DNA of 64,000 nucleotides from Candidatus Gottesmanbacteria bacterium (GTDB lineage: Bacteria > Patescibacteriota > Microgenomatia > JAMCYU01): NCBI GenBank assembly GCA_043801155.1, contig JAZDMI010000011.1, forward strand, positions 27,439-91,438. The letters run 5' to 3'. The stretch's first letter is position 1. Each line of letters opens with the position of its first letter. Shown here one piece after another: positions 51,840 through 52,652 of the stretch. The translations under genes were made by a program, and so were the position numbers. Under the pieces are notes generated by a model, which saw only the letters and a program-made list of their open reading frames with translations, was not told the origin of the DNA and did no database searches.

Positions 51840-52652
51840 ATGAATAACAATAAATTAGCGCTTATTATCGGATGGCTATATCCTGATTTAATGAGTACTT
51901 ATGGCGATCGGGGTAATATTATTTGCCTTAAGAAAAGATGTGAATGGCGGGGAATTAATGTAGAAGTTAGGGAAATTTCACTTACTACTGAAGACTTAAC
52001 ACTTAATGCTTGTGATCTTTTGTTTATGGGAGGAGCTCAGGATAAGCAACAAAAAATAGTTGCTGACGACTTACACGGAAATAAAGGATTAAAACTTAAG
52101 GAAATGATTGACAATAATACGCCTGGATTATTCATATGCGGAGCATATCAATTTTTAGGAAAGTACTATAAACCAGCTGAGGGAGAAAATATTCAAGGAC
52201 TAGGAATATTTGATTTATTTACTATTCACCCGGGAATTGGAAAGGAGAGATGCATCGGAAATATTATTATAAAAATTCAGAATTCGGAATTCGGAACGGA
52301 GAATTTTATTGTTGGGTTTGAAAATCACGGTGGAAGAACCTATTTGGGAAATAAGGTGGAATCATTAGGAAATGTGATTAAGGGCTATGGTAATAATGGC
52401 GACCTGCCCGCCAGCCTTAATGGCAGGCAAGTGCAGGCGGGGGATGGAACCGAAGGGTATATATATAAAAATAGTATCGGCACATATCTCCATGGACCCA
52501 TTTTACCCAAGAATCCTTATCTGGCTGATTGGTTAATCCAAAAGGCCTTATTGAAAAAGTACGGGAATAAGGTAGAATTGAAAAAGTTAGATGACGCTCT
52601 AGAATGGCAAGCACACGATCATATATTAAAAAAATTAAAAATTCAAAAGTAA
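51840..52652 (+). CDS. gatD: Lipid II isoglutaminyl synthase, glutaminase subunit GatD (CobQ-type glutamine amidotransferase)
   Basis: LALIIGWLYPDLMSTYGDRGN and a catalytic Cys in FICGAYQFLG. Immediately downstream of murT. Confidence 0.8.
   Translation: MNNNKLALIIGWLYPDLMSTYGDRGNIICLKKRCEWRGINVEVREISLTTEDLTLNACDLLFMGGAQDKQQKIVADDLHGNKGLKLKEMIDNNTPGLFICGAYQFLGKYYKPAEGENIQGLGIFDLFTIHPGIGKERCIGNIIIKIQNSEFGTENFIVGFENHGGRTYLGNKVESLGNVIKGYGNNGDLPASLNGRQVQAGDGTEGYIYKNSIGTYLHGPILPKNPYLADWLIQKALLKKYGNKVELKKLDDALEWQAHDHILKKLKIQK

Follow-up and report, generated by a model that had tools for sequence, protein, structure and literature searches.

A GC-rich palindromic mini-element in frame within gatD of a Candidatus Gottesmanbacteria bacterium belongs to a dispersed repeat family

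The murT-gatD locus and the insert in GatD

The window, by which we mean the whole 64,000-nucleotide stretch of DNA that was analysed, carries a murT-gatD gene pair, and gatD contains a short GC-rich insert, here called copy B (Table 1). That the host gene is gatD, the partner of MurT, as an earlier note on this DNA had proposed, is borne out by the position of a Pfam-recognized GATase reading frame directly 3' of the MurT gene. Compared with solved structures, the product finds GatD of S. aureus and of S. pneumoniae with E values from 1e-44 to 2e-48 (PDB 5n9m/6gs2 at 2e-48), and its catalytic Cys100 and His218 are invariant alignment columns. An NCBI protein from a Candidatus Gottesmanbacteria MAG is 100% identical to it.

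Table 1. Coordinates in the window of the gene pair, of copy B with its parts, and of the related copy A
Feature	Position	Strand	Description	Basis
murT	50530..51828	+	directly 5' of gatD	Pfam MurT_C, Mur_ligase_M
gatD	51840..52652	+	270 aa, intact ORF	Pfam PF07685, CobB/CobQ-type GATase
Copy B, element proper	52403..52441	+	39 nt, in frame in gatD	nhmmer profile, pattern match, filled/empty DNA comparison
Copy B, 5' arm CCTGCCCGCC	52403..52412	+		same in copy A, five GatD orthologue inserts and >100 metagenome copies (in the last, identity is preset, as the search pattern had CCTGCCCGCC fixed)
Copy B, variable interior AGCCTTAATGGCAGGCAAGT	52413..52432	+	family AGGC motif in 3' half	GatD inserts and family alignments
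Copy B, 3' arm GCAGGCGGG	52433..52441	+	pairs with 5' arm with one T.G wobble and one C.A mismatch	
Copy A	38198..38233	+	36 nt, in frame, other phase (GPARHASQGDAG)	in GT2 glycosyltransferase gene 37976-38758

On re-reading the window, the sequence of the segment, its translation and the conserved GatD segments on either side were all as first described: DLPASLNGRQVQAGD is encoded between GYGNNG and GTEGYIYKN, with the coding reading GAC CTG CCC GCC AGC CTT AAT GGC AGG CAA GTG CAG GCG GGG GAT. The translation DLPASLNGRQVQAGDG corresponds to GatD residues 188-203, and the insert adds 13 residues to the GNNG-E-D turn of the protein. With the architecture CCTGCCCGCC-20 nt-GCAGGCGGG, the segment ranks among the most GC-rich 30-mers of the window, the GC content of which is 35.5%. 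The repeat is real, but the limits of 52401-52447 proposed in the earlier note were too wide, and the unit proper is the shorter interval of Table 1; the flanking GA (52401-52402) and G (52442) are the host's Glu codon, which copy B splits.

The window has exactly two occurrences of the 13-nt GACCTGCCCGCCA (38196 and 52401), in agreement with the claim that copies A and B have their first 13 nt in common, and the pattern CCTGCCCGCC-N15-45-GCRGGCGGG gives 2 matches in the window vs 0 in 100 shuffles. Copy A shares its arms with copy B, the 3' arm being the variant GCGGGCGGG, and is read one phase off. The 'GA' that precedes both copies, considered as a candidate part of the element, is host sequence. 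The arms can pair, as had also been claimed, but copy B folds no better than same-composition shuffles (z = -0.63; for copy A, z = -2.0), so that hairpin energy alone is no evidence for an element.

The protein model favours a surface position for the insert. In the AlphaFold model of GatD (pTM 0.88), residues 188-201 are predicted to form a short beta-hairpin (pLDDT ~70) between two confident strands. The four solved GatD structures are without the insert, and mapping onto them leaves a 13-residue gap in the S. aureus and S. pneumoniae sequences, as expected of an insertion. Counted from the structure alignment, the equivalent S. aureus site is E172/D173. In the S. aureus complex, the MurT interface is made up of helices alpha2 and alpha7, the loop beta13-alpha6 and F146 (PMC6113224), and E172/D173 are not among the interface or catalytic residues listed there. 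The model, together with this exclusion, thus supports a surface position for the insert and agrees with the tolerant surface loop suggested at the outset; for the enzyme, the insert is probably neutral.

Two other GC-rich spots of the window, 7862-7893 in a Mur ligase gene and 58194-58227 in DnaE, were considered as repeats and rejected as ordinary coding sequence, the DnaE loop variant being common to AT-coded versions at two other loci (L006, L031). Between two minus-strand genes, at 44727-44768, there is an intergenic GC-rich hairpin with the sequence CGCTTCG-CGGT-CGAAGCG in ctcgaactcgcctcgcttcgcggtcgaagcgggcctcttcccg; the profile search of the window did not report it as a family member, and it may be a terminator or a different type of repeat. 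Intergenic AT-rich repeats built on ATATATCATATAT / TATATGATATAT, in direct and inverted copies at 392-457, 34863-34914 and 42286-42336, are unrelated to the GC-rich unit.

A dispersed family with two fixed arms

The repeated mini-element that the earlier note had suspected proved to be a dispersed repeat, represented in the window by the GT2 copy in its other phase and outside it by metagenome copies. A scan of metagenome sequence with the pattern GACCTGCCCGCCA-N10-28-GCRGGCGGG matched at least 120 stretches, and about 100 of those listed, in contigs of 32-56% GC, form a clear family, for example CCTGCCCGCC-ATCGCTCTCGCTCAGGCGAG-GCGGGCGGG. The leading GA is a constraint of the scan pattern and no part of the unit; when the constraint is dropped, at least 11 copies have a different dinucleotide in front of them (TG, GG, CG, TA, AA, CA, AC or TC). 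A profile search added three copies in CPR loci that had been collected for a different purpose (L012, L019 and L064), and the exact 36-mer of copy A is also present at two metagenome loci (L125, L132). The typical unit measures 36-48 nt, begins with CCTGCCCGCC, ends with GC(A/G)GGCGGG and has a free interior. Its ends are terminal inverted repeats, with 9-10 of 10 positions of CCTGCCCGCC paired to GGC(G/A)GGCGGG if the T.G wobble is included.

The flank composition of 100 non-redundant copies gave no target consensus. No target-site duplication was found in GatD, where the unit splits GA|R, and no direct repeats flank the copies found without the GA constraint. With no mobilizing gene found, and neither target consensus nor duplication, movement of the unit is suggested by its distribution only. 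In ten element-bearing loci, Rfam cmscan at E <= 1 returned tRNAs, a lysine riboswitch and weak chance matches, none of them at element positions. A literature search by sequence and by concept gave no specific match, and the family appears not to have been described before.

Many copies are intergenic. Among the matches listed, ORFs of 230 codons or more contain 24 copies, of which 13 are in sense and 11 in antisense orientation, with all phases represented. Pfam confirmed LepA, Mfd, an RluD-type pseudouridine synthase, RsmH, RNase R and UvrD as hosts of in-frame copies; the insert occupies the same site in two Mfd orthologues, a linker in RNase R and the tail in UvrD. The LepA gene at L132:3768-5747 holds two adjoining antisense copies within its GTPase domain, with the peptides PPPASQARALRAG and PPASPCEAWRAG, and is about 40 residues longer there than the Pfam profile of the domain. 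Some copies probably lie just 5' of the true start of their gene (KsgA, FolK and MlaA), and the contig that encodes MlaA (L126) offers a single hint that the family extends beyond CPR to a diderm, non-CPR host. PurL was identified as a host from its homologues, at most 1 of 120 of which has the insert. It was considered as a sign of spread across phyla and set aside, the homologues being mostly from CPR and DPANN and the host range thus unextended. A large share of the CPR and DPANN PurL entries are 'partial' and on short contigs, which would fit assembly breaks at repeats. Viral contigs gave 19 matches, mostly chance ones in GC-rich phages, with a few short-loop variants in contigs of about 50% GC.

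It is the arms that define the unit, since they can enclose quite different contents: a complete tRNA gene in L117, 60-100 nt in L106 and L161, and 38 nt instead of 20 in one GatD orthologue (L229). In L117 (614-719; JGI Ga0315281_10047378), they enclose a tRNA-Glu(CUC) gene on the opposite strand (633-706), with full units on both sides (496-536 and 740-784); read on the strand of the tRNA, the leader could pair with the trailer. Half-units and tandem partial arm duplications also occur, and L113, L195, L207 and L216 have composite or tandem forms in which a single 5' arm goes with two 3' arms. Many copies sit within the loop of a second palindrome that is itself widespread, ..GTCATTGCGAGC / unit / AGCGAAGCAATC.. 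(L090, L147, L193, L221, L113 and others), the L090 composite being on an IMG/VR viral contig.

At two loci (L190:415-500 and L185:985-1060), a unit directly follows a 5' tRNA fragment consisting of acceptor and D-arm and ending in ...TAGA or ...CAGA. These fragments are situated just 5' of intact tRNA genes in tRNA clusters, and neither ARAGORN nor Rfam calls a tRNA there. Mimicry of tRNA was considered and rejected, as both are 5' tRNA fragments beside a unit and not tRNAs containing one. The T.G wobble of the unit has a polarity opposite to that of G3.U70 of tRNA-Ala.

Could the segment be absent from the finished protein, removed like a mini-intron or bypassed by the ribosome? Bypass is known from the GC-rich 'byp' elements of Magnusiomyces mitochondria and from T4 gene 60, and the setting is analogous, with GC-rich hairpin inserts in coding regions of an AT-rich genome. 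However, all GatD and GT2 inserts are open and of a length divisible by three, and the antisense copies are open too. Of the 24 copies in long ORFs, 18 have a core length divisible by three. The same is true of 25 of the 50 copies located in a short ORF or in none, and this share of one half makes the frame filter a weak test. When the unit was deleted in silico, the ORF became longer for just one of 107 copies, the only one that resembles a frame-breaking insertion, so nothing points to splicing or ribosomal bypass. We therefore set the intron and bypass readings aside as very improbable and take the insert to be translated.

Filled and empty GatD sites and the conservation of the arms

When the 120 best GatD homologues are aligned, 88 have the form GNNG-x-D-(K/G)TEG, which leaves exactly two residues against fifteen in the source GatD. 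The remaining 32, all from Microgenomates, have an insert at the same codon as the source GatD. Among the 80 GatD loci of species-representative genomes (cyanobacteria, other Patescibacteria and a few others), none has it, which limits their use to fixing the ancestral state. The earlier note had read the segment as an insertion, and these empty sites in close homologues and outgroups agree with that reading. At the DNA level, filled sites read GGN GA|C CTG ... GCG GG|R GAY, or AA|C ... GG|A where empty relatives have Lys, and empty sites read GGN GAR/AAR GAY; the comparison places a 39-nt unit inside the Glu or Lys codon with nothing duplicated.

The GatD inserts fall into types that differ in the state of their arms. 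Type I, (D/N)LPA-x7-QAG, measures 39 nt and has pristine arms, type II, (N/D)QPRLDGGQAG, measures 30 nt and has a decayed 5' and an intact 3' arm, and in type III, NLPSEASAKDG, both arms are decayed; degenerate or partly deleted versions also occur (DQAGD, NLPAQTGD and NLPSEASAKDGD). All types have in common an interior signature specific to GatD inserts, GAY GGY AAR / GAY GGN, which argues for a single insertion ancestry rather than repeated hits by generic copies.

Presence is nevertheless patchy. The nearest relative of most insert-bearing GatD proteins is without the insert, with the neighbour-joining tree behind this statement to be taken as a rough guide, and in one gene pair, about 93% identical in DNA and 87% in protein, one member is filled and the other empty. 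Empty sites are always exact, never one residue longer or shorter. The patchiness could reflect repeated precise loss, or recombination that spreads the filled or the empty allele. The same picture is seen at the copy A site, where 113 of 120 GT2 orthologues are without the 12-residue insert and the seven proteins that bear it are 49-58% identical to one another, each with closer relatives that are insert-less. According to the earlier note, the same loop in GatD orthologues of unrelated AT-rich genomes would speak against an insertion. The loop does recur in other AT-rich genomes, but only in related Microgenomates and in a patchy manner, and this distribution, together with the GatD-specific interior, argues for one old insertion that was shared or exchanged and not for an ancestral loop. 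The sequence comparisons thus point to an insertion in GatD that is old and shared rather than private to the source genome. An assembly or sequencing artefact has a negligible probability, given homologous inserts with substitutions in independent assemblies (NCBI, JGI, ENA and Logan).

The GatD of P0003 (L229:500-545) contains a further GC-rich insert, also in frame but unrelated to the first, GCTCAGGATGACACTGAGCAAAGTCGAAGTGT (peptide ...FDKLRMTLSKVEV...), which is absent from the 87%-identical GatD of P0010 (L230); other GC-rich mini-insert families thus exist in these genomes.

The arms are conserved in a way that the encoded peptide does not explain. Five type-I GatD inserts compared as DNA vary at 0 of 19 arm positions, synonymous sites included, whereas 14 of 20 interior columns vary among four inserts of equal length (Fisher p = 3e-6), and the third positions of the conserved codons adjoining the insert vary freely. 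CTG-CCC-GCC and CAG-GCG, the codons of the arms, are seldom used in the source genome (joint probability 1.3e-4). Taken together, the frozen synonymous sites and the rare codons indicate that it is the nucleotide sequence of the arms that is conserved.

These observations bear on the possibility that the segment is a lineage-specific adaptive loop of GatD whose GC-richness simply follows from its amino-acid composition. Such a loop would fit the defined beta-hairpin given by AF2, and it would fit insert peptides that are more conserved than the host protein: identical peptides occur in GatD proteins that are 64-72% identical elsewhere, such as NLPAMQDGKALQAGD in a pair of about 70%. It would not account, however, for synonymous sites frozen on rare codons, nor for the way in which these nucleotides are read, in a different phase in GT2 and, elsewhere, in each of the six phases. 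In addition, close relatives are without the loop, and degenerate, partly deleted versions of it exist. We consider this explanation improbable, if slightly less so than splicing or bypass.

A more serious alternative, although still an unlikely one, is that the unit is a functional nucleic-acid signal, a DNA or RNA stem for a host factor such as a processing stem or a protein-binding site, with the arms kept by use. Arms that never change at synonymous sites, around an interior that drifts, would be expected of such a signal, as would the identical arm sequence across many contigs, and the arms flank an intact tRNA-Glu gene, whose leader and trailer could pair, while two copies abut 5' tRNA fragments in tRNA clusters. 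Against this, copies occur in the loops, linkers and tails of unrelated genes with no positional logic, most orthologues do without the unit, and Rfam has no matching family. A role at the mRNA level in particular is unlikely, since copies lie in both orientations to genes (13 vs 11) and, on the opposite strand, the T.G wobble that is conserved turns into a C.A mismatch. RNAalifold on the family gave the invariant outer stem only, with no compensatory pairs, the arms being preset by the search pattern. The frozen arms more likely reflect recognition of DNA, or of a single DNA strand, by some factor, or homogenization against other copies. With one old event in GatD and arms that are still pristine, simple selfish decay is insufficient, and either selection or homogenization is needed.

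A probable selfish mini-element and its likeness to known systems

All of these observations establish copy B as an insertion, in frame and patchily present, that belongs to a dispersed DNA-level family with arms held at the nucleotide level. The explanation that we favor, and which seems to us somewhat better than even, is that copy B is a selfish palindromic mini-element of the REP/RPE-like kind, translated and tolerated as an extension of a surface beta-hairpin. In an ancestor of some Microgenomates, the unit would have inserted a single time and without target duplication, within the codon for the Glu of the GNNG-E-D beta-turn. With a length that is a multiple of three and no stop, it would be transcribed and translated with gatD and would lengthen the surface beta-hairpin by 13 residues, away from both the active site and the MurT interface, a location that could explain why the enzyme tolerates it. 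The conservation of the arms, together with gains or precise losses, suggests that a trans-acting enzyme or a recombination process recognizes them, and it is for its likeness in behaviour to REPs and to the Rickettsia palindromic elements that we read the unit as selfish DNA.

A bolder proposal, which we regard as possible but doubtful, is that the family represents the smallest known kind of autonomous-looking mobile DNA. Machinery of CPR and other uncultivated lineages might recognize the 10-nt arms, insert the unit without duplication and excise it precisely, and the unit might carry tRNA cargo, colonize essential genes in frame and act as a source of loop insertions. Precise excision, if true, would explain why empty sites are always exact.

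Proteins of candidate phyla often have unexplained short insertions, and assemblies from these phyla often break at repeats. The family provides a concrete, searchable cause of such insertions, as the two-armed pattern finds copies in GatD, LepA, Mfd and RluD. If the unit were masked during annotation, false ORFs like ...PPASPERERWRAG... would be avoided, and differences in length among orthologues would be explained. If a dedicated enzyme recognizes the arms, the unit would be a new minimal mobile element, perhaps with a new recombinase or transposase; if none does, it would be a natural experiment on a random peptide load in a surface turn of an essential enzyme.

The unit resembles several known systems. 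Bacterial REPs are GC-rich imperfect palindromes of 20-40 nt, present in many dispersed and mostly intergenic copies (PMC3733652), and some intragenic GTAG-/CGTC-tagged REPs lie in frame in known genes, notably those of replication and repair (Di Nocera et al. 2013, PMC3733652). The present unit is likewise a short, dispersed, GC-rich imperfect palindrome, its hosts include Mfd, UvrD and TopA, and nested or grouped copies occur in both. However, it has no conserved unpaired GTAG/CGTC tag at either end, where its flanks are variable; its stem has 10 bp with a fixed T.G, around a long (17-25 nt) and variable interior; no RAYT gene was noticed in the 775 kb of loci; and its arms recur across many unrelated contigs, whereas REPs are species-specific. 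MITEs and other elements with terminal inverted repeats share with it the fixed inverted ends and a free interior able to hold cargo, as with the tRNA-Glu of L117, but differ by target-site duplications and by a size of 70-300 bp, against 36-48 nt. We know of no parent IS for the unit. Without tag or target duplication, it is a member of neither the REP nor the MITE family.

Yeast mitochondrial GC clusters are short GC-rich palindromes in an AT-rich genome that occasionally lie in frame, as in VAR1, and vary between close strains; the byps, which the ribosome skips, derive from them. The present family is similarly scattered, GC-rich and palindromic, with some copies in frame and with presence or absence differing between close relatives, but the GC clusters are organellar and eukaryotic with unrelated sequences, and nothing suggests that the ribosome skips the present unit. 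Also similar in behaviour are the RPEs, which Ogata and colleagues (in 2000 and 2002) reportedly described as selfish palindromic repeats in frame in essential genes, translated and at surface positions. RPE-1 measures about 100-150 bp and is restricted to Rickettsia, which has a small AT-rich genome. Both the RPEs and the present unit are shared patchily among orthologues, and ours, too, lies in frame in functional genes that have insert-less orthologues (32 of 120 GatD and 7 of 120 GT2 homologues carry it). It differs by its 36-48 nt and by its hosts, which are Microgenomates (CPR) and other uncultivated bacteria and not Rickettsia, a distinction drawn from descriptions of the RPEs. The best-supported placement of the unit is therefore within a known kind of element, namely the short palindromic repeats that are able to live in frame inside genes.
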